64,000 nt of DNA from a virus, in the IMG/VR virus record IMGVR_UViG_3300037478_000708, positions 32,001-96,000 of that record, one strand, 5' to 3'. Each line of letters starts with the position of its first letter. Within the stretch, counting starts at the first letter, position 1. The notes under the pieces were generated by a model, which searched no databases, had not been told where the DNA came from, and was given only the letters and a program-made list of their open reading frames with translations. The translations under genes were made by a program, and so were the position numbers. Of the stretch, positions 1 through 35,311 are shown in pieces.

Positions 1-90
1 CGCCACACGTCGATGAACGTCGGCGACGTCATCAAGGTCGGGGGCAAGGTGCTGTTCGTGGACCGCGTGGGCTTCAAGAAGCTGGACTAG
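1..90 (+). CDS. 3' end of a gene with a YodL-like C-terminal domain (partial)
   Basis: Frame 1 reads RHTSMNVGDVIKVGGKVLFVDRVGFKKLD*, resembling the YodL-like H-S-(M/L)-S-V-(G/S)-D-V...D-x-x-G-F pattern. Stop TAG 88-90 lies just before the ATG at 93. Confidence 0.55.
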   Translation, partial: RHTSMNVGDVIKVGGKVLFVDRVGFKKLD

Positions 91-92
91 AG

Positions 93-3000
93 ATGCCGAA
101 GAACATCCAAGGGCTGACGGGCGAGATCGTGACGTACATGATGCGGGGGCGCCGCACGCCGTCGGATCTCCGGACGCACTTTCGCCTGTCCGTCAAGACG
201 GCGCAGCACGTCTACGACCTCGAGCCCGACGCCTTCGGCCCCTCCGGTAGGGGCCGGCAGTGGTACCACACGCAGGTCGGGGCGCTCCTCAAAGCCCCGG
301 ACGCGTTCGAGGCGGAGATCCCTGCGACCCCGCACCGGTCCAGCCTGAACGAGGTCGCCGCCGGGGCGCTGCGCGCTTCCGTGAGCCCGCTGGCCGAGCA
401 CGAGCTGTCCGAAGGCATCGCGGACACGCATCAGGTCAAGATCGCCACGCGCACGCTGCAGCTCTCGGCGATGGGCGCGAAGATCATGGGTGGCATGGAC
501 CACGCGGGCGCGGTCAAGGTGCTCCGCGCGAACGGCTGGCCGGACACGAAGATCAAGGCCGCCCTCAAGAAGCACGGCCACGCGGACCCCGACGTCAAGA
601 AGTGGCTCGGCGAGTCCAGTGACACGCTGTCACTGGACGAGGCCCGTCCGGAGCCGATCAAGGTCCCCGAGACGGTCTACAAGGAGAAGCTCGCCAAGCT
701 GTCGTCGAAGGACAAGGAAGCGCTGCGCAACGTGACGATGGCGTCGCGTGGAGACCACCGGCTGTTCAAGCCGCTGGACGCGGACGGCGCCGCACTCATC
801 AAGCGGCTGTTCGGCGAGGTGACCGAGACGCACGTCGGACGCGGGCCGCAGAAGCGGGAGAGCGCCGCGGAGGGTGCCGGTGTAGGAAGTCCGTCGCGCA
901 CCGGCTCGCACGCGATCGTCGAGGGTGTGCTGCGTGTGAACGACCGCATTCGCGAGCGCGAACTGCTCGGGGAAGCCGGCGGCGCGGGTCAGGAGGCCCC
1001 GAAGGATCCGAAGTGGGGCACGCCCTACGGCTTGCCGATGCTCCACCCGAGCGGGACGGCGATTCGCATGCGCCGCAAGGGGCAGCGCGTTCGTTTCTTC
1101 GACCTGAATGGCAAGCAGGTCGGCCCCGAGCACGCCAACGTTGCGCCGGCCGTCGCGTGGGCGATGAGCAAGGGTTTCGTCACGGAGAGCGTCGACGAGG
1201 CCGGCAAGCCGCTCAAGGTGAAGTGCGGGCAGTGCGGCAACGTCTTCGCGACCAACAAGGACTACCCCAAGTGTCCGAAGTGCGGCAGCAAGGACGTCGA
1301 CCTGCCGGAGTCGGTCGACGAAGCCGCGAGCAAGACGGTGCTCGGCAAGTACAAGCAGAAGACCGTCACGCTGCGCGACTACGGCGATGGAGACGTGGAC
1401 ATCCTCGTCGGGTCGCTGGCCGTGCCTCTGGACACTGCGAAGAAGAAGGGGATCGCGCCTCCGAAGAATCCGCGTGACCTCGCTCAGGTGAGCGCGTTCT
1501 TGGACAAGGCGCTCCCGATCCTGTTCCCGGCGAAGGCGGGGTTCTCGATCGAGTCCGTGGACGAGGCGTCCGGGACCACCGTTCGCGCGGCGGTGCGGCT
1601 CGACTGGTTGAAGGGCGCGACTGCGGGCGTCACGCCGGACGAGAAGGTCGTGGTCTTCCGCTCGTCCGACTACGACAACAAGGGAACCGTCAGCGGTTCC
1701 TACGCCGTTCTCGGGCGCTCTTCGCAGCGCGACCTGTTCTCGTCGCTTCACCTCGAGTGGAACTCCGGCTTCACCCTCGACCGGGGGCAGCACGCGCAGA
1801 ACCGCAAGCGGGCGGAGCAGGCGTTCAAGAAGCTGCCGACCAGCGAAGCCAACGACGACAAGACCGACGACCTGCCCGCGAAGGCCGAAGCCGACCTCAA
1901 GGCCAAGGCGAAGGAGATGGGCGCGATCAAGGTCTCCGGCAAGGGCCCGAGCGTGAACGCGACGTTCGACGACAAGAAGAAGGCGCAGGCGTTCCTCGCG
2001 CACGCCGAGAAGGTCGGCAAGGCCGCGATGCGCCGCTCGGGCGACGAGGAGTACACGGTTCACATCGACGAGTCGGTCGAGCGGTACGCGGGCGCGAAGA
2101 TGGTGGGCGGTTCCGGGGCGGTACCGTTCAGCGCGCTCAAGGTGGGCGCTCAGTTCCGCTTCCCGAAGTCCGACGAGATCAACACGAAGACCTCGGAGGC
2201 GGGCAGCTACAAGACGGCGAACGGACGCAAGTTCAAGACGGGCAAGCACGCGGCGGTCATCCCCGCGAAGTCGGACGAGTCGCTCGACGAAGCCGCCGGA
2301 ACGATCGTGCGGACCTTCTCCTCGGGGTACGTGGCGCTCCGCCTGCCCAGCGGCATCACCGTGCTCGCGCGGGACACGGGGGATGGTGAGCCCATCGCGC
2401 ACGCGAACGTGGCGCAGGCCAAGAAGGGTCTCGCCCGGTTCCTGAGCGCGAACCCCTCGGTGAACGCTCGCGTGCGCGACGCGAAGCGGCCGTTCTACAT
2501 CCTCGTCGAGGACGTCAGCGAGAGCCTCGACGAAGCCGCTCCCAAGAAGAGCAAGGGCCACATCGCGTTCCTCGGCGACTTCGAGTACCTCATCGTCGGT
2601 ACCGACCTCGCACGCGCTCCGATCAGCAACGTCATGGACGTGCGCACGGGGAACCGCCTCGCGCGCTTCGAGGCGACCAAGGCGGCGGCCGACACCGCGA
2701 TGAAGATCGCGTTCCAGGCGTTCGGCAAGCCGGTCGACCCGAAGGCGATGCAGCGCATGCGCAAGCTCCTCGGAGAGAGCCTCGAGGAAGACATCGACGA
2801 GGATGTGCGTCCCGGGCAGATGTTCGTCGTCGTCGACGTGTCGGTGCGCGGCGGGAAGATGATCGGCGAGATCTACACCGGTGCGGCGAGGGCCGACGCG
2901 GCGGCGAGCAAGCTGAAGGCGCGTGGGCAAAACGTGCAGGTCATCGACGCGCTCTGGTACGAGCCCGCCCGTCAGAAGCTCATCAAGTCGGGGCTCGTCG

Positions 3001-6000
3001 GGGAGGACGCGGAGCCCCGCGTGCTCGCACTTGGGGACGGTCGCTATGCCGTCGATCTGGGCGAAGGCGAGGCGCTGGTCAAGATCGTGGACACGCTCGA
3101 GGAAGCGATCGACGAAGCCGGTCGTCTCGCGGTCAAGTGCATGGAGTGCGGAAAGAAGTTCAAGACCGCTTCCATGCTCCCCGACTGCCCGAAGTGCGGC
3201 GGTTCGGACATCGAGCCCGACTACGACGCGCCCTCCGCGAAGAAGAGCTACGCGGCCGGCAGGACGCGCAAGCGTTCCGTCGGACACGAGTCGATCATCG
3301 AAGGCGCCGTGCCGAAGGTGGGCGATCGCGTCGCGCTTTCTCGCGACCACCTCCGCGGCACCGGCAACCAGACGGGTACCCTGCCGCAGTTGCGGGGAAC
3401 CGTGACCGCGGTCAGCGGTGCGGGCATCGCGACCGTCGACTGGGGTCGCGGGGTGAAGTCCCCGCGCGTGAACGTGAAGAACCTCGTCGTGCTCGGCAAG
3501 GGCGACAGTCTCCCCGTGGAGTCCGCCGACGAGGGGCTCGCGCCGCTCGAGGTCACCGTCACGGACGTCTTCGACAACGGCGCGTGGTGTCACCCGCGCT
3601 ACACGGTCAACGTTCGCACGAACAACAACGAGGACTACACGTTCGGCATGTTCGAGCCCGGCACGGAGCCCGCGGCGCTCCAGACCGTCGAGGACTTCCC
3701 GAACTTCACGAACTTCATCAAGGGCGCCGCTCGCCCCGGCGAGTACATGGAGCGCGTCGAAGTCGCCGCTCTGCCCGACGTGCTGCGCACCCAGCTCCAG
3801 ACGCTTCTCGCGCGGGCCGACACCTACGACCGCACGATGGAGTTCGATGAGGCCGCCGACGAGTCGGCGATCCGCAGCTTCGACGTCATGGCGCAGATGC
3901 GCTGGGAAGAGACGCTCAAGCCCGGCGCGAAGGTGATGGTCTACTGGACCGCGGGCAGCTTCGGGCACTACCAGGGGAAGGCCACGGTCAAGTCGCTGAA
4001 CAAGTCGAGCGTGACTGTTACGCTCGACCACGATGTTCCCGATCGGAGCCGTCTCGGTGGCGCCGGTTACGCGAAGGGCAAGAAGATCAACGTGCCGCGC
4101 GTCATGGCGAACTACGGCCGCAACACGTGGTCGATGGGCTTCAACGCGGTGCACCCGCTCGGCGGGCCGCAGGCGTTCATGGAGGGCGCGGTCGACGAGT
4201 TCACGAGCGCGGCCGTGCCTTCCGTCGGCAACCTGCATCCCTGGGCGCATCCCTACGGCAGCGAGGTCGAGTTGATGGACGAGCCCGACGAACTGGACGA
4301 CGAACAGCTCGACGCGCGCGGCAACATCGAGCCGATCGACGAGGCGATTCAGCCGACGGTTGCGGGCTTCCGGATGTTCGTGGTCGGTGCGCTGACGCAG
4401 TGGGACAAGCAGCAGGAGGTGCGCGCGTCGAAGAAGCCCGGCGGCAGTCACAGCCCCTACGCGCTGTCGCTCTACCTCGAGGCGCTCCACCGCGGGGAGA
4501 AGAGCAGCACCATGCGCGGGGTGAAGCCCGACTCGATGGATCCCGAAGATCTGCGCAAGTTCGCCAAGATGCTCGGCGAGCAGTTCTTCTCCGACATGCC
4601 CCCGATCCGGAAGACGCTCAAGGCGATCGACGCGTACCTCGCGTCGGGCAAGGCGCCGAAGTACCCCGGCTCGAGCAGCCGCTCACTTCGGAGCGAATCC
4701 CGCGATGAGACTGCACGTCTCGCCAAGGGGCTCGTCTACACCGCGGTCGCCGCGGCGGAGGACGGCCGGCTGACGGAAGCCGTCGCCAAGCTCCGGGCCG
4801 CGGGCGAGACGCTCGACGAAGACGCCCTCGAGGGCCTGCTTCCCGAAGACGTCGTGGAAGCGCTCAACGAGTGGGCAGACGAGAACGACGTCGACGACGC
4901 GATCGTCGAAGGCTACGCGGTCGCGCTTCGGCTCGGCCTGGACGACCACGTGTACGGCCTCGACGAAGCCACCTCGGCGGCGAAGCTGCTCGACACGGCC
5001 GACAGCAAGCTCATCTCCGAGCTGCGCAAGGGACTCGTCAAGGTCGGCGCCGCCGCCAAGGAAGCGAAGCGCGGTCAGGCCGAGATGGAGAAGCGTCTCG
5101 GTGTGGGCAAGAGCACGGCCAAGGATCAGCTCAAGATCGTGGTCAAGGAACTGGAGGCGTACCGCACCCTGCTCGATCAGATCATCAAGCAGGCACAGGT
5201 GGCCGAGAGCGTCGACGAAGACCTCGCCGAAGCCGGGTCGCTGCACGACGCGCTCCTGAACCACTTCGTCCGCAACCGCGGGCGCTCCTACACGGCGAGC
5301 GAGATCGCGCGGCTCTTCTCCGCGTCCACCGCGGAGTCGATGAAGACGCTCTCCTCGCTCGTCAACGAGGGCACGCTCATGTTCCGGCGCGGCGAGGGCT
5401 ACTCCCTGCGCGGCAATTCGAGCGCGCTGCGCATCCCCGCCAGCCTGCACGGTTCTCGCGTGGGCAACTTCGTGAACCAACGCACGGAGGAGGCGGAGTT
5501 GGACGAGGTGCGCAACTCCGGTCGCCCGACGAACTGGCGGGGCAGCGGCGAGGCGGGTCGAGACGCTCTCCAGGCCCGCGGTTCGGCGAAGACCAAGGCC
5601 CGCTTTCAGGTCACGCAGCTCGTGGCCAAGAGCGGCACGACGCCCGCGGTGCTCGCCGACGTGTCGAAGCTCTCCACGTCGATGCCGGCGCTCAAGTACC
5701 GGGGCAAACCGGGCGAGAGCTACGACATCGTGTACAAGGGCCGGGTCATCGGCACGCTGCGCTCGTCAGGGAGCGGCTCGCTGCCCTGGACGGTCAAGCG
5801 CAAGGACGGCACCAAGCTCTCCGACGTCGGCTTCGGCTCCGTGCACCACGCCGTCACGCGCGCCCTGGCCGACGCTCTCGGCGACGCCTGGGGCAACGCG
5901 GAAGAGTCCGCGGATGGCCTTGGTGAAGGACTGGGGCGCAAGGTCTTCTACACCCGGGATGGCGTCGGTTCGTCGAAGTACACCGTCAACTACCACGATG

Positions 6001-7811
6001 GGAAGACCACGCATTCGGACGGCAGCCCGTTCTACGGGATCTTCGTTTTCCCGAACAAGGCGAAGCGCGACCAGAAGATCCGTGAGCTTTTGAAGCAGGG
6101 CTACGAAGAGGTCAGCTCTGCGGTTCACGAGACCACGACCTCCGGCACGGTCGGCGGCTACCGCCGCGGCAAGCTCGAGCAGCCCGAGAACAAGGGCCGC
6201 ACGGGCGGCATCCGCGACGACGGCCCCGGCAAGAAGGGACCGCGTTCGGTGTGGTCGCCCGACGCCATCGCCAAGGTGCTCGAGCAGATGCGCGAGGCTC
6301 TGCCCGGCCACTCCGACGAAGAGCTGCTCGAGCTGCTCGACGAGGCCCCCGAGGAAGGCGCCCGGAAGGACGTCACCGTCTTCGGGGACGGCAAGGGCAA
6401 GTGGTTCGTGGCGGATCCCTTCGGCAAGCAGGAGCGCTACGCCACGAAGACAGAGGCCGTCCAGGCTGGTCGGGATCTCGCGCAGCACGAGAACTGGGGC
6501 TTCGTGGTCAGCGACCCCGACGTCACCCTCGCGAGCGAGTCGATCGACGAGGCTCCCGAAGACCTCCGCGAGATCGATCCCGTCGACACCATCCAGCGGG
6601 GAGACAAGGTGACGATCCTGATCCCGGCCGGGCTCGGCAGGCAGGGGCAGGAGTGGAAGCCCAAGGCGGGCAAGGCCGTCATGCGCGGTCCGCACGGGTG
6701 GGTCCTCAACATGGGCGGTGCCCACGGAACGCCCGGCGTCGCCTCCTCGCGCAACATCGTGAAGGTGCAGCGCGGCGGGAAGACGCTCTACCACAACCCC
6801 CGTCCGGATGTGCTCGGCGAGTCCGTGGACGAGGCGGGTGCGGACAACCGGCGTCCGGTGAAGCTCGGGCCGATCGAGAAAGAGCTGCTCATGCAGCTCC
6901 GCGAAGAGCGCGGCAAGCACGGCATCGAAGAGCTGATCGCCGCGAGCCCGATGCTCAAGAAGCTCCCGTATCAGGACGTGCTCGTCGCCGCGCAGAATCT
7001 CGCGACGCTCGGTCTCATCGGCGGCAACGGCCGCGGGATCGTCCTGCCCTTCGGCGAGTCCGAAGACGCGGGTCTCGACGAGGCGTCCGTGCCGGTCAAG
7101 GGTCACGACACGGTGACGGAGGTCGGCTTCGCCCGCGGCACGTACTACTACGTCTCCAAGAGCGGTCTCAAGAACTCGGTCGCGGTCAAGCGCAAGGACC
7201 GTGCATCCGCCCGCGAGCGGTTCCGGCAGATGCTCCGCAACGAGGCGAACGTCAAGGACGCCGACGCGCTCATCAAGCAGATCGACGCCAAGCTCGGCGA
7301 GTCCCGCCAGTGGGCGCGCTACGAGGTGCAGCTCGACGAAGAGTTCTTCGATCGCTACGACGCGCTTGGCATCGAGCGGCCCGATCCGAAGACGATGTGC
7401 CACGGTCAGTGCGAAGGCACCGGCTGGGTGCCGATCGGGCCTCCCGAAGGCCGCGTGCCGGAAGGCCGTCTGTTCTGCCCCGCCGACAACGAGGAGCCGT
7501 GGCGTACGCTCTGGCTCGAGGCGGAAGAGAAGGATCCGACCGACGATGGGTACCACATCGTCAAGTGCCCCGACTGCGAGGGCACGGGCAAAGATCAGGG
7601 CGACGCCTCTCACGGCGAGCGCCGCCGAGCGCAGAAGACGGAACGCACCACGATCGAGTTCCCCGAGTCCGCCCTGGAGACGTACGTACTCGCCGCGCAG
7701 GCCGCGGGGCTCGCGGAGGACGATCCGTGCTTCGTCTTCGAGGACGGCCGCTTCACCGCGGAGCTGCCCGCCGACGTGGCCCCGCGCATCATGGAACTCG
7801 TCGCTCAGTGA
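93..7811 (+). CDS. Giant modular protein (2572 aa); putative capsid-packaged polyprotein with repeated ES[VLI]DEA linkers
   Basis: Long ORF with strong GC3 bias. ES[VLI]DEA at nt 1185, 1308, 1551, 2277, 2520, 6537, 6819 plus many variants separate 35-140 aa modules (Zn ribbons, wHTH-like, SH3/KOW-like, DUF2188-like). CDS is secure; function is inferred. Confidence 0.8.
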   Translation: MPKNIQGLTGEIVTYMMRGRRTPSDLRTHFRLSVKTAQHVYDLEPDAFGPSGRGRQWYHTQVGALLKAPDAFEAEIPATPHRSSLNEVAAGALRASVSPLAEHELSEGIADTHQVKIATRTLQLSAMGAKIMGGMDHAGAVKVLRANGWPDTKIKAALKKHGHADPDVKKWLGESSDTLSLDEARPEPIKVPETVYKEKLAKLSSKDKEALRNVTMASRGDHRLFKPLDADGAALIKRLFGEVTETHVGRGPQKRESAAEGAGVGSPSRTGSHAIVEGVLRVNDRIRERELLGEAGGAGQEAPKDPKWGTPYGLPMLHPSGTAIRMRRKGQRVRFFDLNGKQVGPEHANVAPAVAWAMSKGFVTESVDEAGKPLKVKCGQCGNVFATNKDYPKCPKCGSKDVDLPESVDEAASKTVLGKYKQKTVTLRDYGDGDVDILVGSLAVPLDTAKKKGIAPPKNPRDLAQVSAFLDKALPILFPAKAGFSIESVDEASGTTVRAAVRLDWLKGATAGVTPDEKVVVFRSSDYDNKGTVSGSYAVLGRSSQRDLFSSLHLEWNSGFTLDRGQHAQNRKRAEQAFKKLPTSEANDDKTDDLPAKAEADLKAKAKEMGAIKVSGKGPSVNATFDDKKKAQAFLAHAEKVGKAAMRRSGDEEYTVHIDESVERYAGAKMVGGSGAVPFSALKVGAQFRFPKSDEINTKTSEAGSYKTANGRKFKTGKHAAVIPAKSDESLDEAAGTIVRTFSSGYVALRLPSGITVLARDTGDGEPIAHANVAQAKKGLARFLSANPSVNARVRDAKRPFYILVEDVSESLDEAAPKKSKGHIAFLGDFEYLIVGTDLARAPISNVMDVRTGNRLARFEATKAAADTAMKIAFQAFGKPVDPKAMQRMRKLLGESLEEDIDEDVRPGQMFVVVDVSVRGGKMIGEIYTGAARADAAASKLKARGQNVQVIDALWYEPARQKLIKSGLVGEDAEPRVLALGDGRYAVDLGEGEALVKIVDTLEEAIDEAGRLAVKCMECGKKFKTASMLPDCPKCGGSDIEPDYDAPSAKKSYAAGRTRKRSVGHESIIEGAVPKVGDRVALSRDHLRGTGNQTGTLPQLRGTVTAVSGAGIATVDWGRGVKSPRVNVKNLVVLGKGDSLPVESADEGLAPLEVTVTDVFDNGAWCHPRYTVNVRTNNNEDYTFGMFEPGTEPAALQTVEDFPNFTNFIKGAARPGEYMERVEVAALPDVLRTQLQTLLARADTYDRTMEFDEAADESAIRSFDVMAQMRWEETLKPGAKVMVYWTAGSFGHYQGKATVKSLNKSSVTVTLDHDVPDRSRLGGAGYAKGKKINVPRVMANYGRNTWSMGFNAVHPLGGPQAFMEGAVDEFTSAAVPSVGNLHPWAHPYGSEVELMDEPDELDDEQLDARGNIEPIDEAIQPTVAGFRMFVVGALTQWDKQQEVRASKKPGGSHSPYALSLYLEALHRGEKSSTMRGVKPDSMDPEDLRKFAKMLGEQFFSDMPPIRKTLKAIDAYLASGKAPKYPGSSSRSLRSESRDETARLAKGLVYTAVAAAEDGRLTEAVAKLRAAGETLDEDALEGLLPEDVVEALNEWADENDVDDAIVEGYAVALRLGLDDHVYGLDEATSAAKLLDTADSKLISELRKGLVKVGAAAKEAKRGQAEMEKRLGVGKSTAKDQLKIVVKELEAYRTLLDQIIKQAQVAESVDEDLAEAGSLHDALLNHFVRNRGRSYTASEIARLFSASTAESMKTLSSLVNEGTLMFRRGEGYSLRGNSSALRIPASLHGSRVGNFVNQRTEEAELDEVRNSGRPTNWRGSGEAGRDALQARGSAKTKARFQVTQLVAKSGTTPAVLADVSKLSTSMPALKYRGKPGESYDIVYKGRVIGTLRSSGSGSLPWTVKRKDGTKLSDVGFGSVHHAVTRALADALGDAWGNAEESADGLGEGLGRKVFYTRDGVGSSKYTVNYHDGKTTHSDGSPFYGIFVFPNKAKRDQKIRELLKQGYEEVSSAVHETTTSGTVGGYRRGKLEQPENKGRTGGIRDDGPGKKGPRSVWSPDAIAKVLEQMREALPGHSDEELLELLDEAPEEGARKDVTVFGDGKGKWFVADPFGKQERYATKTEAVQAGRDLAQHENWGFVVSDPDVTLASESIDEAPEDLREIDPVDTIQRGDKVTILIPAGLGRQGQEWKPKAGKAVMRGPHGWVLNMGGAHGTPGVASSRNIVKVQRGGKTLYHNPRPDVLGESVDEAGADNRRPVKLGPIEKELLMQLREERGKHGIEELIAASPMLKKLPYQDVLVAAQNLATLGLIGGNGRGIVLPFGESEDAGLDEASVPVKGHDTVTEVGFARGTYYYVSKSGLKNSVAVKRKDRASARERFRQMLRNEANVKDADALIKQIDAKLGESRQWARYEVQLDEEFFDRYDALGIERPDPKTMCHGQCEGTGWVPIGPPEGRVPEGRLFCPADNEEPWRTLWLEAEEKDPTDDGYHIVKCPDCEGTGKDQGDASHGERRRAQKTERTTIEFPESALETYVLAAQAAGLAEDDPCFVFEDGRFTAELPADVAPRIMELVAQ
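614..638. repeat. Dispersed palindrome copy 1
   Basis: GTCCAGTGACA-CGC-TGTCACTGGAC, 11-bp perfect arms, inside the giant ORF. Confidence 0.9.
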
Positions 7812-7825
7812 CACGCTGTCACCGG
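7806..7825. repeat. Dispersed palindrome copy 2
   Basis: CAGTGACA-CGC-TGTCACCGG; contains the TGA stop (7809-7811) of the giant ORF. Confidence 0.85.
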
Positions 7826-7837
7826 TTGACCCGGGTG

Positions 7838-7867
7838 TAGACAGGTGCCCACGCAGGTCTTTACTAT
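7838..7867 (+). promoter_or_regulatory. Putative promoter (TAGAC class)
   Basis: TAGACA-N18-TACTAT, upstream of AGGAG and ATG 7911. Confidence 0.6.
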
Positions 7868-7910: not shown

Positions 7911-9356
7911 ATGCCGATTCAGTTCAAGCCCAAGTCCTCCAAGCAGGAGGAGGAGCGGACCTCCGCCGAGCGGAGCCTCCTGCTCTTCACGGAGTCCGGC
8001 GAGCTGACCCTGGCGGGCCAGACGATCGCCGACTTCCTCGAGACGGTCGACTTCGAGGACGTCACCACGTCGCCGGAGGCGGAGGCGTTCCTCTTCAACC
8101 CCGACGTCACCGCAGACGATCCCTACGCCGACCTCGCGGAGGAGGGCGACGAAGAGGACGGTGACGAGGAGAAGGTCGCCGCGGACGCCGACGACGAGGA
8201 GGAAGACGACGAGGAGGAGGAAGACGACGACGAGGACGCCGACGAGAGCGCGCCGCAGGTGGTCCTGCCCGGCGAGGTCGCCGCTCGCCTGGCCGACATG
8301 GACGACCTGTCGGAGATGTTCGGCTTCTACCTCGACAAGCTCGGCGAGAAGGACGAACTCACGCTGAGCGAGAAGGCGACGCTCGCGGTCTTCGCGGACT
8401 ACCGCGACGACGAGGGCGGGCTCACCGACGAGGGCAAGCTCGCGGTCGCCAAGCACCTCGCCGCGGTGCTCTCCGAGGGCATGCTCGTCGAAGACGCCGA
8501 GTTCATCGACGAGAAGTTCCTCTCCAAGGGCCAGCGGATGAAGCGCGCGCGCATCGCGCGGAAGCCGAAGGCCGGCAAGAAGCGGATGGAGCTGAAGAAG
8601 CGCCGCAAGAAGCGCAAGCGCATGAAGGCCAAGGTGCTCCGCCAGGAGCGCAAGTTCCGCCGCAAGCGCAAGACGCGCCTCAAGATGCTCTCCCGCGAAC
8701 GCTCGTCCCACGAGGGCAGCGGCGAGAACGGCAAGGCCGAGGGTGTGATGATCTTCGGTCACGCGACCGGCATCGACGGCGCGGACTTCCGCGCGAGCCT
8801 GGCCGAGACGCCCGACCTCGAGTTCACCCGGGACGATCTCATCGCGCTCGACGCGCAGATGGGCAACGTCGTCGAGTGCCCCGAGTGCGAGGCTTCGAGC
8901 CCCTTCACGGCGCTGCTCGCCGTCGACGAGAAGAAGAAGAAGATGCCGCCGGCCTTCCTGAAGAACATCAAGGGCAAGAAGGGCAAGAAGGACGCCGACG
9001 GCGACAACGACGGCTCCGAGAAGGGCGAGAAGGACGAGGCCGCCGACGAAGCCGTCTCGCTGACGTGCCCGAAGTGCGAGCACGAGTTCCCCGTCGACGA
9101 GGCACGCGAGAAGCTCAAGGGGGCGAAGTACAACCACCCCGCGGCCAAGAGCGCGCGTGCGTCGGAGGCTCTGGCCAAGGAGACCTCCAAGGAGAAGGCC
9201 GCCGCGAAGAAGACCGGCAGCAACGAGTCCGCCGGTGGGCCGTTCTCGATCGTCTCCGGGCGCCCCGACCTCAGCGAGGGCCACAGCCTCGCGGCGCGGT
9301 CGCTCGGCGCGATGGGTCGGCTCAAGCCGAAGCCTCTCACGGAGGCCGCCGACTAG
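7911..9356 (+). CDS. Putative prohead core / scaffold-type protein
   Basis: Very acidic N-half with a D/E run, a dense K/R block (MKRARIARKPK...KKRRKKRKRMK) reminiscent of T4-like gp68 core proteins, two CxxC pairs and many [VLI]-x-E sites. Confidence 0.5.
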   Translation: MPIQFKPKSSKQEEERTSAERSLLLFTESGELTLAGQTIADFLETVDFEDVTTSPEAEAFLFNPDVTADDPYADLAEEGDEEDGDEEKVAADADDEEEDDEEEEDDDEDADESAPQVVLPGEVAARLADMDDLSEMFGFYLDKLGEKDELTLSEKATLAVFADYRDDEGGLTDEGKLAVAKHLAAVLSEGMLVEDAEFIDEKFLSKGQRMKRARIARKPKAGKKRMELKKRRKKRKRMKAKVLRQERKFRRKRKTRLKMLSRERSSHEGSGENGKAEGVMIFGHATGIDGADFRASLAETPDLEFTRDDLIALDAQMGNVVECPECEASSPFTALLAVDEKKKKMPPAFLKNIKGKKGKKDADGDNDGSEKGEKDEAADEAVSLTCPKCEHEFPVDEAREKLKGAKYNHPAAKSARASEALAKETSKEKAAAKKTGSNESAGGPFSIVSGRPDLSEGHSLAARSLGAMGRLKPKPLTEAAD

Positions 9357-11526: not shown

Positions 11527-11646
11527 GTGACGCACAAGGCACCCGTCAACGGCCGGCTGCTGCCGAAGACATCGCATGCTGCGTGCGTCGCGGCTGCGCG
11601 GAAGCGTGGGTACGTCCGACCGCGGACGACCCGTGGCAAAAGCTAA
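11527..11646 (+). CDS. Possible small basic protein (39 aa)
   Basis: GGGAGG about 10 nt before GTG; overlaps the start of the next gene. Confidence 0.3.
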   Translation: MTHKAPVNGRLLPKTSHAACVAAARKRGYVRPRTTRGKS

Positions 11647-12859
11647 GAAGCGCAAGACCGAGAAGTACGCACGCGTGACGATCGAGCGGCACGCGCTCGA
11701 GAGCATCGTCGACGCCGGCTACAACCCCCGGCTCATCTCGCAGGAGGCGCTCGACGGCCTGTCGCAGAGCCTCGTCGACCTCGGTCTCCTGACGCACCTC
11801 GTCGTCAACCGAACGCGCGAGGGCCTCGTGCTGGTCGGGGGACATCAGCGCCGCCGGATCCTGCGCGAGTCCGGCGTGACCGAGGTCGACTGCATCGTGG
11901 TCGAGTTCGACCCCGACCGCGAGAAGCACGCGAACTACAGCCTCAACAACCGCGAGATCCAAGGCGAGTTTGTTCCGGAGCTGCTCAAGTCCGTGCTACA
12001 GCGGATCCGGGAGAGCGTCGGAGACGACCACAAGAAGCTCTTCGCGCGCCTGCGGTTCGACTCGCTCTACCGCTCCGTCCTGCGCCAGCTCGCTCACGTC
12101 GAGCCGAAGGCGAAGGGCAGCGTGACGCGCGGCAAGGTGCGCGACGACGACATCCCGAACCTGTCGCGCACGCGAGCGGTCTCCGAGGACGGGCAGCTCT
12201 ACGCGCTCGGCGACCATCGGCTCTACTGCGGCAAGGTGACGCAGCCGGGGAGCTTGACGGTGTTCGACGTCGAGCGCGCGGACATGGGCTTCCTGCGACT
12301 CTGCCAGGACGATCCTTTCACGTCCGAGTTTCTGGAGGTCGTGCTCGGGCACCAACTTCAAAACACGGAGGGGGTGGTCTACGTCGCGGGTCACTTCGAT
12401 TCGATCGCCGACGTGCAGGGTGCCTTCGAGGCGATGGGCGGGCACTGGAGCAACACGCTCATGTTCTTCCCGAAGGAGGCGAAAGGTCGACGCGACGATC
12501 CCTATCGCGACGTCGTGGTTCCGGTGCTCTACGGCTGGCGGGAAGGCTCCGATCACGGCTTCTACGGCGGGCGTCGACAGGCGAACGTGGCGCACCTCGA
12601 GGGGCTTCCACCGAAGACCGACGTCGCCGTCGAGATCGTGCAGCTCGCGATGGAGAACAGCTCGCGGCCGGGAGACGTCGTGCTCGACGCGATGCTCGCT
12701 CACGGCGCAACCCTGATTGCCGCCGAGAAGCTCGGTCGCAAGCTCATCGGCTACGTGCACTCGGCGCGCGAAATGGATCGCATCCGTCACCGGTGGACGC
12801 GGTTCGTGCACGGCCCGCGCGCTGACTGGCGCAAGAAAACCACGGAGGTACCGACTTGA
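11633..12859 (+). CDS. ParB-N domain + degenerate N6/N4 DNA methyltransferase-like domain
   Basis: YNPR, LVGGHQRRRIL, LGDHRLYCG, ENSSRPGDVVLD...TLIAAEKLGRK. Lacks DPPY and FxGxG. Confidence 0.75.
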   Translation: MAKAKKRKTEKYARVTIERHALESIVDAGYNPRLISQEALDGLSQSLVDLGLLTHLVVNRTREGLVLVGGHQRRRILRESGVTEVDCIVVEFDPDREKHANYSLNNREIQGEFVPELLKSVLQRIRESVGDDHKKLFARLRFDSLYRSVLRQLAHVEPKAKGSVTRGKVRDDDIPNLSRTRAVSEDGQLYALGDHRLYCGKVTQPGSLTVFDVERADMGFLRLCQDDPFTSEFLEVVLGHQLQNTEGVVYVAGHFDSIADVQGAFEAMGGHWSNTLMFFPKEAKGRRDDPYRDVVVPVLYGWREGSDHGFYGGRRQANVAHLEGLPPKTDVAVEIVQLAMENSSRPGDVVLDAMLAHGATLIAAEKLGRKLIGYVHSAREMDRIRHRWTRFVHGPRADWRKKTTEVPT

Positions 12860-13257
12860 ACGCGCTACGACGCCTACGTGCCCTGCTCGCAGATCTGCCC
12901 CTGAGTGACCTGCAGCTCAATCCGGTGTCAGGAGTCGTGAATCAGATCGAGTCGGAGATGCTGGAGGGTGCGGCGGCCGTGCTCGCACTCGGCTCCCTCC
13001 AGCAGATGATCGACGTGCGCTTCTTTGGGCACAGCCGGCCGTGCCCAATCTGCGCGCAGCACAAGACGCACGCGACCACGTGCTACGTGCGCAAGGCGAC
13101 GGGCTGGGATCTGCTCGACGAGACCGAGGCAACGATTCGCGAGAACGACGAGCTTCGGCGCGCGCTGGCGCGGCACCTGCCGCACAACGGCAAGACGATC
13201 CTCGCGGGGCAGCCCTACCGAAGCCTGAAGGACCGCGCTCGTCTTCACGGGGGGTAG
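12856..13257 (+). CDS. Hypothetical protein
   Basis: TTG overlaps the previous stop; CPIC...H...C motif. Confidence 0.55.
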   Translation: MNALRRLRALLADLPLSDLQLNPVSGVVNQIESEMLEGAAAVLALGSLQQMIDVRFFGHSRPCPICAQHKTHATTCYVRKATGWDLLDETEATIRENDELRRALARHLPHNGKTILAGQPYRSLKDRARLHGG

Positions 13258-13352
13258 ACGCCCGCCTCCTCGATCGAGAAGATACGCGTCCTGCCTGGAG
13301 TCCACACCTTGAACCTCCCACCCTTCCGCATGGCGCGGAACTGGAGCGCTTG

Positions 13353-15239
13353 ATGCCCGACGCAGCACACCCCGATTCCGTGAAAGAGCTGGACGAGTTC
13401 GCAGCCGGCGTGACGCTCTCCCAGCTCGCGATGTCCAAACCCGATCCGCTGACCGCGGACTACGTGGCGCAGTGGGCACGTGGGCTGGTCGAGATGACCG
13501 CGGCCGGTCGACAGCTCATCGACGCCCTGTACGCCGCGCTGGAGCCCAAGTACGTGCAGTTCGCGTATCGTGCGGGCTTCGGGGAGGTCCCGAACGCGAT
13601 GCAGAACCTCCAGATGGAGCTGGAGGACATCATCACGGAGATCTCCGTGCCGGAGGTCAACTACCCCGCGCTCTCGCACGAGTACCTCGAGGGCAAGGAC
13701 GCGGTGGGCTTCGTCGTCAAGGCGTTCACGGCCTTCTACGAGACGATCGGCAGCCCGCCCCCGAAGACGCTTCAAGCGCTGCCGGGTGGCACGGTGCTCT
13801 GGACCCTGATGCAGGGCATCGCGCAACTGAACCTCCACACGGCCGACCTCGGCTGGATGATCGACAAGTTGTGGGGTCCGGAAGAGCCGCCGGTGGATCC
13901 GCCGGCCGGAGGGGGCGGGTCGCCGTTCACCCTGCCGGGTGAGCCCTGGCACGACGAGAACCCGACCGAGCCCCTGATGGTGCCGTCGGGCTCGAACCCG
14001 CTCGTCTACGCGCTCGACGAGGCGAAGAAGGAGCACGCGGGCAAGACGTTCACCGAGGCCGACGTCATCCACGTCTACACGCAGCCCTACAACGGGCTCG
14101 GTCTCGGGATCGGTGCGACGGGCTGGACCCCGCTGATCTCCTACGCGCCGTGGTGGGGCGCTGCGCTGCTCGTGCTGCACGGGCAGGGTGCCGACCAGTC
14201 GATCATCCAGCCGAACGGTGGCGGCGGCTGGGGCTCCTCCTGGGGCTTCGAGCCGCACCCCGGCTGGACGGGTCGGATGGTGCTCGTCGGCTTCAAGCTC
14301 ATCGCCTCCGGCGGCAACGCGATCAGCGGTGGGCTCTACGGCTCGCAGACCGAGAACCCGCTGCGCGAGCTGCACATCGTCGCGAGCGAGTTCTGGGACG
14401 GCCCCGAGCGCTGCACGCGGCCGGTGTCGCTCAACCAGGCGTCGATCACGTTCCACCGCTGCAAGGCGCGGCTGCCGAAGTCGAAGGAGCACTTCTGCTA
14501 CAGCCGTAACCCCTACGGTCCGGCCGGCATGAACGACTGCGACATCGACGGTCTCGGTGCGCAGCCCTGGCAGGAGGTCGCGCGCCCGAGCGAGGGTCCG
14601 ACCTACCCCGTCGACGAGACGGTCATCACGGGGCTCGTCGCGCGGCACTACCACCAAGACGCCGGCCGCGCGGGGAGTGCCGTCACGCAGGCGGGCTCCG
14701 GGCGCATCTTCCGCGTGAAGGACTCGACGTTCGTCGACGTCGACCGCTCGGAGGAGAACCCGCCGGCTTGGGGCTCGGGCCTTCAGTCCTACGGGTGCCA
14801 CGTCACCTACACCGGTGGCATGGACAACTTCCGCCCGCTCCCCGGGGGCTTCGCCAACAAGGGCGTCTACTACGAGAACGTCGACTTCGTGCACAAGGAT
14901 CCCAACCGCACGCTCGTCACGTTCAACTCGGTCGAGACCGTGCGCATGACGGGCTGCGGGATCTGGGGCACCAAGGGTGTCGCGGTCGCGTCCGACCCGG
15001 GCGAAGGCGGCATCGTCGGCGATCTGGAGATCTCCGGCTGCAACACGCCCGAGGCCAGGGCGCGCATCCTCGCCAAGAGCGCCGAGCTGGATCTCGGCGT
15101 GACCGAGGAGCATCTGGTCGAATCGACCTTCCGCTTCGGGTCCGACAAGAACAAGGCGGAGACCGGCATCGCGATCTCCAAGGGGTTCAAGGTCAAGGAC
15201 ACCGCGATCGTCGGCGCGTTCTCCGGTACGCCCGGCTGA
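13353..15239 (+). CDS. Hypothetical protein with probable C-terminal beta-helix (pectin-lyase-like) region
   Basis: GGAG before ATG 13353. Helical N-part, Pro/Gly linker, then LHGQGADQSII and beta-strand repeats (FHRCK, VKDSTF, YENVDF, MTGCG, ISGCN). Confidence 0.55.
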   Translation: MPDAAHPDSVKELDEFAAGVTLSQLAMSKPDPLTADYVAQWARGLVEMTAAGRQLIDALYAALEPKYVQFAYRAGFGEVPNAMQNLQMELEDIITEISVPEVNYPALSHEYLEGKDAVGFVVKAFTAFYETIGSPPPKTLQALPGGTVLWTLMQGIAQLNLHTADLGWMIDKLWGPEEPPVDPPAGGGGSPFTLPGEPWHDENPTEPLMVPSGSNPLVYALDEAKKEHAGKTFTEADVIHVYTQPYNGLGLGIGATGWTPLISYAPWWGAALLVLHGQGADQSIIQPNGGGGWGSSWGFEPHPGWTGRMVLVGFKLIASGGNAISGGLYGSQTENPLRELHIVASEFWDGPERCTRPVSLNQASITFHRCKARLPKSKEHFCYSRNPYGPAGMNDCDIDGLGAQPWQEVARPSEGPTYPVDETVITGLVARHYHQDAGRAGSAVTQAGSGRIFRVKDSTFVDVDRSEENPPAWGSGLQSYGCHVTYTGGMDNFRPLPGGFANKGVYYENVDFVHKDPNRTLVTFNSVETVRMTGCGIWGTKGVAVASDPGEGGIVGDLEISGCNTPEARARILAKSAELDLGVTEEHLVESTFRFGSDKNKAETGIAISKGFKVKDTAIVGAFSGTPG

Positions 15240-15324: not shown

Positions 15325-16569
15325 ATGCCGGCGCAGATCAGGACGGAGTTGGAGGTCGCGAAGCTCGATCTCCGCAGACTTGAGTTCGCGGCCTACAACC
15401 CGCGGACCATCTCCGCCGAAGCGCGGCGGGGTCTGCACGAGTCGCTGGAGTCGCTCGGCCTGCTCGAGCTGCCCATCGTCAACGTGCGCCACGACCCTCC
15501 CAGGATCGTCAGCGGGCACCAACGGGTACGGGAGCTACTCGACGCCGGCTACACGCACTCGGACGGCGTTGTCGTGCGCATGGATGACACGGCCGAGATG
15601 GTCGCGAACGTCGCGCTCAACAACCACGCCGCGCAGGGCACGTTCGACCCGGTGCGCGCGCTCGCGAACGTCGAGAGGGTTGCGAAGACCTTGCCTCGCC
15701 CCGACTACACGCGCTTCGAGCAGCTCAGCCAGAAGCTCCGCGAGCAGGCGCGTAGGGCGCAGGCCAGCTCGAACCCGCGGGCCGAAGACGCCGTGTCCGA
15801 AGAAGCGGAGGCGGCTGACTCGGAGATCGGGCAGGTCTACTACCTCGGCGAGAGCGTGCTCTACTGCGGTGACTACCGAGACGGGCTCGCGGCCATTCTC
15901 AAGCGCAAGAAGGTCGACGTCGCGATCACCGATCCGCCGTACAACATCGCCTACACGAGCGGGAAATGGTTTCGCAACGACAAGCTGCGCGAAGAGATCG
16001 AAGGGGATGAGCAGGATCCCGCTGCTTGGACGGAGTTCGTGCGGGACTTCTGCGCGGCGCTCCTGAAAACGGTCAAGGGTGCGATCTACCTGTTCACGGC
16101 TGCGCAGGAGATGCACGAGGTTCAATCCGCCTTCGTGGAAGCCGGCGGAGACGTGCACCGCTGGATCGTGTGCGCGAAGGACGCGCATCCGCTGTCGCCG
16201 AGCGACTACCACCCGCAGTACGAACTCGTGCTCTACGGAGGTCGCGCGCGCACGGAGGTCGCCTACTTCGGGAAGGCGAAGACGAACGTCGTGCCCACGA
16301 AACGTCCGACCAAGAACGAGCTGCACCCGGCGCAGAAGCCGGTGAAGCTCATTCGCGAGTTCGTCGAAGACTGCACCGACGTCGGTGACACGATCCTCGA
16401 CCTCTTCGCGGGCTCGGGCACCGTGCTCTGCGTGGCCGCAGAGCTAGAGCGCATCTGCTACTCCTGCGAGATCGACCCGGCGAACTGCGACAAGATCCGG
16501 AGGCGCTGGACCGAGCAGGTGCACGGGAAGGGAGCGGACTGGCGAAACCTGACGCAGGTGAAAGTGTGA
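15325..16569 (+). CDS. ParB-N domain + N6/N4 DNA methyltransferase (beta class, motifs intact)
   Basis: YNPR, IVSGHQRV, TDPPYN, HPAQKPVKLI, ILDLFAGSGT, CEIDP. Confidence 0.9.
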   Translation: MPAQIRTELEVAKLDLRRLEFAAYNPRTISAEARRGLHESLESLGLLELPIVNVRHDPPRIVSGHQRVRELLDAGYTHSDGVVVRMDDTAEMVANVALNNHAAQGTFDPVRALANVERVAKTLPRPDYTRFEQLSQKLREQARRAQASSNPRAEDAVSEEAEAADSEIGQVYYLGESVLYCGDYRDGLAAILKRKKVDVAITDPPYNIAYTSGKWFRNDKLREEIEGDEQDPAAWTEFVRDFCAALLKTVKGAIYLFTAAQEMHEVQSAFVEAGGDVHRWIVCAKDAHPLSPSDYHPQYELVLYGGRARTEVAYFGKAKTNVVPTKRPTKNELHPAQKPVKLIREFVEDCTDVGDTILDLFAGSGTVLCVAAELERICYSCEIDPANCDKIRRRWTEQVHGKGADWRNLTQVKV

Positions 16570-20248: not shown

Positions 20249-20667
20249 AGAACCCGCTCGGGTTCCTCGCTCCTCAACGTGGACGCGCGCCGGTGCCGTC
20301 GCAGTTGCCGGGACAGTTCTTCGTGCTGGAGTACGACCGCGAAGCGGGCGCCTTTCGCTTGCATGTAGACGACGCGGATCACAGTACCTACGATCTGCCC
20401 GACGACAGCGCCTCCCTCCAGACGCTCTTCCGAGCCCTTACGACCTCCGCAGGAGTACCTCTACAACCGACGCAGATCGACCGCACGATCGACATCGCTC
20501 GCGAGCTGGGGATGGCCCAGTACATCCCGACGCCCGGCGAGCTTGTCGAAGACCGCGTGCTCTCGATCATTCCCCGCGGCCCGTCGCAACAGGGGCTTCA
20601 GTTCGATGAAGACGAAGACCAAGAAAGCTGGCTCGCGAGCCTCCGGCCTCTCGGAAGCCGCCGCTAA
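20245..20667 (+). CDS. Hypothetical protein
   Basis: GTGA overlap with the previous stop. Confidence 0.55.
   Translation: MKNPLGFLAPQRGRAPVPSQLPGQFFVLEYDREAGAFRLHVDDADHSTYDLPDDSASLQTLFRALTTSAGVPLQPTQIDRTIDIARELGMAQYIPTPGELVEDRVLSIIPRGPSQQGLQFDEDEDQESWLASLRPLGSRR
20366..20394 (+). promoter_or_regulatory. Putative promoter for protease/capsid genes (inside upstream CDS)
   Basis: TAGACG-N17-TACGAT. Confidence 0.5.
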
Positions 20668-22274: not shown

Positions 22275-23774
22275 ATGATTCTCTCCAATCAGGGTATCTA
22301 CGAAGGTATCCTCGAAGCAGGGGCGCGTCTCGCGGAGACGCCGGAGGCCGAGGGCGGCTGGGCGGAATACTTCGCCGAGACCGACGAGGCGGACATGCGC
22401 ATCGAGGATCCGATCCTCCGCGCGCAGACCGCCATCCTGCTCGAGAACGCCAAGCGCGAGATGGCGCAGAGCCTCCCGCGCTCCGTCGTGCAGGGGCGCG
22501 TCCGTCTCGACGAGACCACGCGCTCGGCGCTCGTCGGCGGCTTCTCCGACTACCTGTTCCCCATCATCCGCGCCGGGTTCCCCACGAACCCGGTGAACGA
22601 GCTGGTCTCCGTCCAGCCGACGACGCGGCGCACCGCCACGGTCGTCTACTGGAACTGGATCGTCGGCACCAACAAGGGCACGTTCACGCAGGGGCAGAAG
22701 CTCTTCGACGCGAACACCGGCAAGCAGACCCGGGACATCAACTTCTCGAACGAGGTCATCCAGGGTGAGCCCCTCGTCGCGCTCGGCTCGGCCGGCGCAA
22801 CCGCGAGCGGCACGCTGGCCTTCCACGACGGCGGGGGCATCCGCCCCGGCACCGTGGCGCTCTCGCTCCAGATCACGACCGGCCCGGCCACGGTCGTCTT
22901 CGTCGACAACGGCAACGGCGCGTTCATCGGTACCGGCGTGACCATCTCGGCCTCGTCGATCAACTACCAGACGGGCGCGTGGTCCATCACGCTGAACCTC
23001 GAGACGTTCACGACGTCGGCGGCGAACACCGCGACCTACCGCTACGACAGCGAGGGGTCGACGATGACGCCGCAGGTGGACGTGCAGATCGTCACGAACA
23101 CGGTGCAGACCGAGCGCCGTGCTCTGAAGATCAACTACTCGAAGGAGGCGATGCAGGACGTCATGTCCGAGTTCGGCATCTCCCTCGAGCCGAACCTCGT
23201 CGCCGGTGCGGCCGAGCAGATGAACTACGAGATCGCTCGCCAGATCCTCGCGGAGATCTGGCAGGTCGCTCCCGTGGCTTCGTCGTTCGACCTCAAGGTG
23301 CCGTCGGGCATCTCGCAGCAGGAGCACTTCCGCGACCTGATCTTCAACATCCAGACGGCCTCCAACTCCATCTGGGCCCGCACCCAGAAGGCGTACGGCA
23401 ACTGGATCACGGTCGACCAGGGCTTCGCCACGCTGATCGAGTCGCTGCCCGCGAGCCTCTTCGTGCCGGCTCCGATGCCGCCGAGCGTCCACGGCCTGCA
23501 CTTCATCGGCACGCTCCTCAACCGCTTCCGCGTCTACAAGGATCTGCACCTCGACAAGGAGCCGGGCGCCGCGGAGCTGGGCAACATGCTCATGGGCTAC
23601 AAGGGCCAGAACTTCTTCGAGGCCGGTTTCGTCTGGGCTCCGTACCAGCTCATGTACACGACGAACCCGCTCGAGACCGCCGACTTCCTCACGCAGCGCG
23701 GCCTGGCGTCGCGCTACGCGACGAAGATGGTCAACCCGGACATGTACGCCCGGATCAACCTCATCACGACCTAG
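22275..23774 (+). CDS. Major capsid protein (T4 gp23-like)
   Basis: TAILLEN, IIRAGFP...ELVSVQP, RALKINYSKEAMQD, EIARQIL, MGYKG...AGFVWAPY, RGLASRYA. Confidence 0.95.
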   Translation: MILSNQGIYEGILEAGARLAETPEAEGGWAEYFAETDEADMRIEDPILRAQTAILLENAKREMAQSLPRSVVQGRVRLDETTRSALVGGFSDYLFPIIRAGFPTNPVNELVSVQPTTRRTATVVYWNWIVGTNKGTFTQGQKLFDANTGKQTRDINFSNEVIQGEPLVALGSAGATASGTLAFHDGGGIRPGTVALSLQITTGPATVVFVDNGNGAFIGTGVTISASSINYQTGAWSITLNLETFTTSAANTATYRYDSEGSTMTPQVDVQIVTNTVQTERRALKINYSKEAMQDVMSEFGISLEPNLVAGAAEQMNYEIARQILAEIWQVAPVASSFDLKVPSGISQQEHFRDLIFNIQTASNSIWARTQKAYGNWITVDQGFATLIESLPASLFVPAPMPPSVHGLHFIGTLLNRFRVYKDLHLDKEPGAAELGNMLMGYKGQNFFEAGFVWAPYQLMYTTNPLETADFLTQRGLASRYATKMVNPDMYARINLITT

Positions 23775-34462: not shown

Positions 34463-35311
34463 ATGGCCGAACTAGGTTGGATCGACTACACCCTCCCCTC
34501 TCGGGGGAGGGTCTACGGGAGCCGGCTTCCCGACGGCAAGGTGCAGATCCGCACCATGACCGCGCGCGAGCAGGCGAAGCTGAGCCAGCAAGGTGGCGGG
34601 ATCGTCGGGAAGGTGAACGCCATCGTCAACGCGTGCGTGCGTCTGCCCGAGGACTTCGGGAGCGCCAAGCAGCTCATCCTGACGGACCGCTTCTCGCTCT
34701 TGCTTGCGATCCGCACGAAGACGTTCGGGCCGGTCTACGAGTACGAGTACCGCTGCGGCGGTTGTGGCGATCAGGTCAAGTCCGTCGTCAACATCGTCGA
34801 GGACTTGGACGAGCGCACGCCCACGGACGACTTCGAGGAGCCCTTCGCAGTGCTCCTGCCCGACTCGGGGAAGACGGTGCGGCTACGCCTCCTGCGCGGC
34901 ATCGACGAGGATCAGATCGTCGCGAACGCGCGTCGGATCCAGATGCAGTCCAACGATCCCGACGATCCGTCCTACCTGATCCGGGTCGCAATGCAGCTCG
35001 TCTCCGTCGACGAGGAGGAGGAGCCGTACAAGCCGCTTCCCTTCCGTCAGCGCTTCATCGAGAACCTGTCGGCCGGAGACCTCATCGCCCTGGAGGACGC
35101 GGTGAACGACGTCGAGCCCGGGATCGACACGCGGGTCTACCCCGCGTGCCCGCGTTGCGAGTACGTCAGCGAGATCAGCATGCCCTTCGTGGCCGAGTTT
35201 TTTCGTCCGAAGCGGCGGAGTCGACCTGCCAACGCTGGAAGCGAACACGTTCTTCCTCGTGTACCACGGCAAGGGGTTCACGAAGGAGGACGTGGACAAC
35301 ATGACGATTGA
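34463..35311 (+). CDS. Baseplate hub / tail assembly chaperone (T4 gp26-like)
   Basis: LPSRGRVY, IRTMTAREQ, DRFSLLLAIR..TFG, CGGC, LPDSG, CPRC, EFFRP. Confidence 0.8.
   Translation: MAELGWIDYTLPSRGRVYGSRLPDGKVQIRTMTAREQAKLSQQGGGIVGKVNAIVNACVRLPEDFGSAKQLILTDRFSLLLAIRTKTFGPVYEYEYRCGGCGDQVKSVVNIVEDLDERTPTDDFEEPFAVLLPDSGKTVRLRLLRGIDEDQIVANARRIQMQSNDPDDPSYLIRVAMQLVSVDEEEEPYKPLPFRQRFIENLSAGDLIALEDAVNDVEPGIDTRVYPACPRCEYVSEISMPFVAEFFRPKRRSRPANAGSEHVLPRVPRQGVHEGGRGQHDD

Follow-up and report, generated by a model that had tools for sequence, protein, structure and literature searches.

The window analysed here comprises 64,000 nucleotides (nt), bases 32001-96000 of the 156,008-bp IMG/VR virus record IMGVR_UViG_3300037478_000708 (GC 67%), which CheckV rates as complete. 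Near its start, on the plus strand at 93..7811, lies a giant open reading frame (ORF; P0001) of 2572 amino acids (aa), with a GC content at third codon positions of 0.90, in which ~20-25 small modules are joined by linkers of the form E-S-[VLI]-D-E-A. The linker has the form of a cleavage site for the head-maturation protease that the phage itself encodes, and many small proteins are therefore probably loaded into the capsid as one chain; the architecture is well supported and the mechanism unproven. The phage is an uncultured myovirus of the T4 superfamily. Its major capsid protein shares no more than ~32% identity with the closest counterpart in cultured phages, and the clade is therefore known from metagenomes only. 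The giant gene sits in a same-strand block with the portal on one side and the protease, capsid, and tail genes on the other.

The seven copies of ES[VLI]DEA listed in the first-pass annotation are all exactly placed: a perfect ESVDEA linker occupies 1185..1202, with a predicted cut after E369, and the other perfect copies start at 1308, 1551, 2277, 2520, 6537, and 6819, all on the plus strand. The linker variants that it reported at 612, 2064, 2775, 3096, 3288, 3519, ~4330, ~4956, 5205, and 7056 are present as well. Compared with 7 copies in the 2572-aa protein, 500 shuffles gave a mean of 0.004 and a maximum of 1, and the shorter [VLI]DEA was found 13 times versus 0.27 expected from shuffles. 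The core tripeptide [VLI]DE occurs 20 times in the 2572-aa protein and 21 times in a longer ORF call of 2619 aa; for the latter, the composition of the protein predicts 2.5 (P = 4e-13). Chance or composition was ruled out as the source of the motif by the shuffles and the composition-based expectation. The distances between sites range from 41 to 361 aa with a median of 89, and the earlier statement of a motif every ~35-140 aa thus stands roughly, some stretches being longer. The segments between the sites had been described as mostly basic and mutually unrelated; 15 of 26 have an isoelectric point above 8, and BLASTP found them dissimilar to one another, except for two Zn-ribbon modules (residues 370-410 and 1009-1070) that match the same homolog segments. 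An array of many small proteins is also upheld, but the proposed count of 25-30 is somewhat high, since there are ~20 canonical and ~5 weaker sites; some of the intervals between sites contain more than one domain.

The linker codons differ synonymously (Ser TCG/AGC/TCC, Val GTC/GTG, Glu GAG/GAA, Ala GCC/GCG/GCT), so selection acts on the peptide and not on a DNA repeat; a DNA repeat or recombination site was ruled out on this ground. An internal Shine-Dalgarno sequence (GAGG in GAC-GAG-GCN) was rejected too, as GAA encodes the P1 Glu at 9 of the 20 sites and no start codon lies at a fixed distance. A site logo built from 227 [VLI]DE sites in 16 related giants has Glu at P5 (60%), Ser at P4 (42%), Leu, Val, or Ile at P3, Asp at P2, Glu at P1, and Ala at P1' (45%). 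Residues with a destabilising effect in the bacterial N-degron pathway are depleted at P1' (18 observed versus 63 expected, P = 1e-13), which a simple protease preference for small residues may alternatively cause.

Every studied relative of the S77 protease family cleaves after Glu: T4 gp21 cuts after the Glu of L/I-X-E, and the homologous proteases of phiKZ and SPN3US after that of S/A-X-E and A-X-E (PMC9026906, PMC5694885). Judged by its sequence, the linker conforms to the T4 gp21 rule L/I-x-E. A gp21-like protease had been placed near 20606, and the plus-strand ORF there (20543/20603-22222) indeed matches Peptidase_S77 (PF03420, E 1.5e-14) and PHROG 207, making it the predicted processing enzyme. 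When it was aligned to T4 gp21 (5jbl), the His of GHLEHP and the Ser of GVSSRG fell at aligned positions, and these are presumably the catalytic residues of a gp21-type protease. A C-terminal extension of ~270 residues is rich in coiled coil and scaffold-like, with a weak match to a kinesin coiled coil, and no separate scaffold gene was found between the protease and capsid genes; the ORF looks like a protease-scaffold fusion. In T4, the gp21-type enzyme processes itself and degrades the scaffold. The Gp23-type major capsid protein follows at 22275..23774 on the plus strand (Pfam Gp23, E 2.7e-45). Its L78-D79-E80 (nt 22506-22514), named in the first-pass annotation as the place where a propeptide would end, is the predicted propeptide end, with R-L-D-E and then T ~8 residues ahead of the Gp23 match.

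We compared [VLI]DE counts with composition-based expectation across the ~146 called genes of the 156-kb genome. Strong enrichment was confined to three proteins, namely this giant, a second giant directly upstream (12 versus 2.3 expected), and the protease ORF (7 versus 0.86), whose sites lie in the N-terminal leader and in the coiled-coil C-terminal extension. A mild excess was seen in three further proteins, at genome 133737-136205 (4 versus 0.37 expected) and at window 34463-35311 (3 versus 0.38) and 13041-15239 (3 versus 0.48), which may be additional protease substrates. In one related genome (G001), the sites are carried by the same set of proteins. Another (G003), with a protease 35% identical to the one here, has three motif-rich ORFs upstream of the protease, of 1626+, 687, and 862 aa, with 11, 7, and 9 sites versus 1.8, 0.6, and 1.1 expected and no detectable similarity to P0001; its capsid protein reads TLDE then ATR at the position equivalent to RLDE then TTR here. 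No comparable motif-rich ORFs were seen in a low-GC phage whose protease is 31% identical. Three observations tie the giants more closely to the head protease: the co-enrichment in the protease tail, the L-D-E in the capsid protein of the distant relative, and a promoter-like element in common with the structural operons, described below.

If the gene is a cassette array, as the first-pass annotation proposed, its motifs should lie outside folded domains, its modules should match small stand-alone phage genes, and its homologs should retain the linker through gain, loss, or movement of modules; the data agree on each point. Two AlphaFold2 models were obtained with hand-assembled alignments. 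In the model of residues 1706-2572, confident domains span 2056-2085, 2156-2235 (a beta-barrel), 2256-2315 (helical), 2331-2405, and 2516-2572, with sites 2153, 2247, 2330, and 2416 in the low-confidence gaps between them and site 2084 at a helix end. In the model of residues 1071-1720, domains 1151-1250 and 1421-1520 are confident and 1267-1316 moderate; sites 1147, 1253, and 1417 border confident domains, the helical domain 1421-1520 beginning 4 residues past PIDE/A, and sites 1369, 1397, 1576, 1625, and 1709 lie in low-confidence stretches. Together with the five sites of the first model, the three bordering sites make eight at confident-domain edges, and no canonical site falls inside a confident core in either model. 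A non-canonical I-E-E at 2280 lies within a domain and is probably not a cut site.

The modules delimited by these sites, all on the plus strand, begin with an N-terminal module (residues 1-183, 93..641) that ends in SLDE/A and is always N-terminal in close homologs (block 7-177); it is a candidate prohead-targeting propeptide. A 41-residue Zn ribbon (370-410, 1200..1322) lies exactly between two ESVDEA linkers, and the second Zn ribbon (1009-1070) is at 3117-3302. A highly conserved module with a confident alpha/beta fold (1148-1253, 3534..3851), bounded by ESADE/G and FDE/A, was found in 6 of 6 close homologs. Further along are a helical module (1418-1576, 4344..4820), a module at ~1930-2013 (5880..6131), a beta-barrel (2154-2247, 6552..6833) with a predicted local distance difference test score (pLDDT) of ~97 between SIDE/A and SVDE/A, and a small helical winged-helix-like domain (2256-2315, 6858..7037; pLDDT 91-97, weak fold matches). 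A DnaJ-type CxxCxGxG zinc finger (2417-2510, 7341..7622) directly follows LDE/E, and a C-terminal module (2516-2572, 7638..7808; pLDDT ~93) closes the chain. Weak matches suggest that the recognisable folds are small nucleic-acid-binding types, with Zn ribbons, a winged-helix-like domain, and an Sm/Tudor-like barrel. A Pfam search of the giant returned only Zn-ribbon-type and weak DUF matches, and no module received a defence-related annotation. In the ESM Atlas, one module scored at most 0.79 and the N-terminal module had no usable match.

Metagenomic giants related to P0001 range from 1583 to 3365 aa. Nine metagenomic homologs of 1583-2865 aa were found, and all nine have the linker. Their similarity to P0001 is a patchwork of blocks, in which internal blocks come and go and shift place and only the terminal modules are fixed; the C-terminal module (block 2518-2570) is always C-terminal in homologs P0002-P0008. 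The beta-barrel is relocated in P0002, P0003, P0004, and P0006, residues 2137-2224 mapping to 401-478 in P0002, 686-761 in P0003, and 397-465 in P0006. Residues 1930-2020 map to 255-351 in P0006, that is, near the N-terminus, residues 2395-2500 map near 330-520 in P0008-P0010, and one further contig has a different module order again. The ends of high-scoring segment pairs fall within 10 aa of a site in 43% of cases, compared with 17% for random positions. More distant relatives have two or three giants elsewhere. Contig L009 encodes two, of 2865 and 2319 aa, and L010 three, of 1583, 801, and 2317 aa; one of the giants in these contigs lies downstream of ParB-methyltransferase genes and contains a NUDIX domain. 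In P0009, the NUDIX module directly follows a linker.

The modules also occur as genes of their own. An exhaustive HMMER search with residues 1373-2572 (E <= 0.001) gave 1222 matching proteins, many of them complete at 70-135 aa and matching one module each, such as the beta-barrel (2164-2229), the DnaJ-type zinc finger (2417-2506), or the module at 1945-2010. The beta-barrel has 33 stand-alone homologs of ~94 aa, the zinc finger 23 of ~95 aa, and the module at ~1930-2013 has stand-alone homologs of 77-83 aa, while the helical module (1414-1542) has separate homologous proteins of 139-285 aa; at least four modules of the giant therefore exist as stand-alone small proteins. When small proteins were aligned to the giant, 59 of 66 fitted wholly between adjacent sites, and the zinc-finger family starts at the residue right after L-D-E 2416. 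Among 74 small homologs of at most 160 aa, the strict linker was absent and [VLI]DE occurred 3 times versus 5 expected, and the linker is thus a property of the array and not of the module. The unrelated phage contigs L006 and L007, for instance, have stand-alone zinc-finger homologs in their early regions, one such gene lying amid tightly packed small genes. Ten stand-alone module homologs had no useful Pfam or PHROGs match.

The upstream giant is an ORF of 2314 aa on the plus strand at genome 25146-32090 (locus L004), its 3' end occupying 1..90 of the window. It contains a Zeta-toxin/AAA_33 P-loop kinase module (residues 722-874) directly after LAVDE/G, which in contig L010 of the same clade is a separate 368-aa gene (35% identity, E 2e-36). 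Its stop codon lies 2 nt ahead of the ATG at 93. A frameshift fusion of the two giants was considered and rejected, as the junction is not conserved and the gaps in relatives are 10, 59, and ~1100 nt in differing frames. A palindrome, GTGACACGCTGTCAC, overlaps the stop of P0001 (7809-7811) at 7809-7823, and the heptamer TGTAGAC follows at 7836..7842, 75 nt before the next gene; together they mark the end of a two-giant operon. Another copy precedes the upstream giant by 95 nt (genome 25051), one stands before the protease ORF (20364..20370, plus strand), and others precede the neck, sheath, and baseplate operons. Copies of the heptamer are at window 7836, 11471, 20364, 25275, 30806, 49268, and 57487 and at genome 57 and 25051; the 10 intergenic plus-strand copies are all in the first 90 kb, that half of the record where the genes for protease, capsid, and tail lie, making it a candidate late promoter element. 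From the 2-nt junction, the palindrome at the stop, and the shared heptamer, the giants look like one operon co-regulated with the virion genes. The giant gene is encoded among late or virion genes and has the TGTAGAC element, a putative promoter, in common with them.

Other virion genes recognised are those for a head-tail adaptor (window 26187), the tail sheath (window 31196), a baseplate wedge (window 49733), and, close to the end of the record, a T4-type portal. Five contigs have the same gene order, with HNH, first giant, second giant, ~480-aa protein, and two ParB-methyltransferase fusions. The protein that follows the giants here (7911-9356, 481 aa) matches no family and has a TGTAGAC element to itself; its N-terminal half is extremely acidic, its centre is rich in Lys and Arg, and it contains a CxxC...CxxC zinc ribbon. 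Two genes for fusions of ParB-N with an N6_N4 DNA methyltransferase (11576-12859 and 15325-16569) flank a 732-aa ORF (13041-15239), and this pair stands beside the giants in all related contigs.

We propose, with confidence a little above even, that the giant is a late-expressed polyprotein that is loaded into the prohead, where the head protease cuts it into small proteins, most of them basic. It would be made together with the virion genes, and the whole chain would enter the prohead, probably by way of the position-fixed terminal modules. The T4 gp21-type serine protease would then cut after the Glu of every [VLI]-D-E linker, setting free ~20-25 small, mostly basic folded proteins, among them Zn ribbons, a winged-helix-like domain, a small beta-barrel, a DnaJ-type zinc finger, and other folds. 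The released proteins would remain with the DNA and likely be delivered to the next host, and the adjoining 2314-aa giant would operate likewise. Gain, loss, and shuffling of cassettes would drive the evolution of the array, in which the linker may be retained because it must fit the protease. The capsid-packaged cassette array of the first-pass annotation is thus supported in its modularity and its match to the protease site, while cleavage, packaging, injection, and an effector role are the parts that we infer.

Other explanations fit some of these observations. The giant might be a polyvalent protein that is associated with the virion and left whole, or cut no more than once or twice, with the acidic motif as a flexible linker or a non-cleavage docking motif. 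Uncut giant virion proteins exist, such as the N4 vRNAP (PMC5512222), and about half of the other large module-sharing proteins have no recurrent linker motif; an alternative motif was looked for in those without [VLI]DE, and none was found. The P5-P4 Glu-Ser preference is also missing at the capsid and protease sites. A plain linker, however, need not match L/I-x-E/A, be co-enriched in the protease tail, or avoid N-degron residues at P1', and the motif is conserved across giants that have no modules in common, which makes an intact or sparsely cut protein unlikely. Rather unlikely, too, is a role as assembly or core filler, in which the head protease would cut the giants but their fragments, like those of T4 gp22, would leave the capsid before or during DNA packaging. 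Against it, the modules fold well as small domains and have counterparts among independent small genes, one of which belongs to the early region of phage contigs unrelated to this one, and module content turns over at a speed that is unusual in assembly proteins; the protease already carries a scaffold-like coiled coil, and sister arrays contain enzyme modules (Zeta-like kinase and NUDIX). Such a filler would nonetheless have precedents in T4 gp22 and in the long propeptides of phiKZ and SPN3US, which are multiply cut for clearance (PMC9026906, PMC5694885), and the terminal modules of the giants are strongly conserved. We give the least weight to a polyprotein that is never packaged and is cut in the cytoplasm by free head protease or a host protease, its modules acting late in the same infection. 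T4 gp21 does cleave cytosolic CD-NTases late in infection (PMC12991175), and the giant has no recognisable capsid targeting sequence. Yet the stand-alone homolog with readable context sits amid small early-region genes, so that late production makes most sense if the products enter the next cell. In addition, terminal modules that keep their place point to a role in loading, and packaging is the general prediction for phage polyvalent proteins encoded beside late genes (PMC5512222).

Several points weigh against prohead loading and processing as we propose them. The activity of gp21 on cytosolic proteins means that cleavage by itself would not prove packaging. [VLI]DE is not avoided in the remaining proteome, with 52 copies elsewhere in the genome, and the tripeptide alone is therefore insufficient to define a substrate; the restriction of Glu-Ser to the giants could reflect a second constraint. 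A short T4-style capsid targeting sequence is missing, the first [VLI]DE being at residue 183. Whole-protein and two single-module searches of 50,697 GenBank phage records by megablast and tblastn gave no useful match, and neither the giant nor the small module families were found in cultured phages. Stand-alone homologs were found for modules of the C-terminal half only, a word-limited search with residues 184-1370 having returned no short homologs. The low confidence at linkers stems partly from shallow alignments and is thus not proof of disorder, and Foldseek searches of both models against PDB and BFVD gave weak matches only, to winged-helix and Hfq/Tudor-like barrel folds.

More tentatively, and as a possibility that we hold at less than even, a high-GC (61-67%) T4-like clade may have moved an early-type repertoire of ~45 modules, in two adjacent genes that make up 9% of the genome, into late polyproteins diced within the prohead by the head protease. 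Every virion would then deliver, along with its DNA, a stoichiometric and ready-made set of dozens of small proteins, and the linker would be a universal adaptor through which cassettes could be taken from ordinary stand-alone phage genes or given back to them. If prohead loading and processing are as proposed, they would constitute a new route of protein packaging and delivery for a dsDNA phage, in which one targeting event and one protease specificity load dozens of proteins, compared with a targeting peptide per cargo in T4. They would also place several large unannotated families of small phage proteins in a virion-delivered, entry-time context; the modules of the C-terminal half alone have >1000 metagenomic relatives. 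Such an array would also point to a modular, naturally occurring design for delivering proteins with phage capsids. We found no description in the literature of a phage polyprotein processed by the head protease.

Among the closest parallels are the T4 internal proteins IPI, IPII, IPIII, and Alt, which likewise depend on a cognate S77 protease acting at an L/I-x-E site with a small P1' residue. Like the products proposed here, they are small, mostly basic, packaged in the prohead, cleaved on maturation, and delivered with the DNA. They differ in being separate genes, each with a targeting peptide of 10-20 residues and one cut, in contrast to one chain with at least ~20 sites; the giant had no Pfam or PHROG match to the IP/Alt families and no tblastn match to them in the 50,697 phage records. 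The inner-body and ejection proteins of phiKZ, 201phi2-1, and SPN3US, cut by gp175/gp245, share homologous proteases, many cuts after Glu at a three-residue motif, and a large protein mass that is packaged and ejected. In those unrelated jumbo phages the motif is S/A-x-E or A-x-E and the cuts mainly clear N-terminal propeptides from proteins of ordinary size, whereas P3 here is Leu, Val, or Ile, and no PHROG or BLAST match to the gp93-97 paralog families was found.

Polyvalent proteins (Iyer et al. 2017, PMC5512222) resemble the giants in combining many unrelated domains in a huge chain that neighbours virion genes and is mosaic and fast-evolving, and the sister arrays here likewise contain Zeta-like kinase and NUDIX modules. 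Polyvalent proteins contain 2-15 domains, most of them enzymatic, and are proposed to be released by embedded zincin-like or other peptidases (PMC5512222). Pfam detected none of their hallmarks (MuF, zincin-like peptidase, ART, ParB, or LPD) and no embedded peptidase in the giant, and in the upstream giant it found only the Zeta/AAA_33 kinase, with no polyvalent hallmark domain or embedded peptidase. Unlike polyvalent proteins, the arrays described here have far more and smaller modules and a uniform linker that fits a trans-acting head protease. The polyvalent proteins were themselves likened to the polyproteins of RNA viruses (PMC5512222). With RNA-virus and retrovirus polyproteins the giants share no homology, and they differ from them in belonging to a dsDNA genome and in a protease that would act in trans from the capsid assembly machinery, but the logic is the same, with one product, a uniform protease site between units, and fixed stoichiometry.

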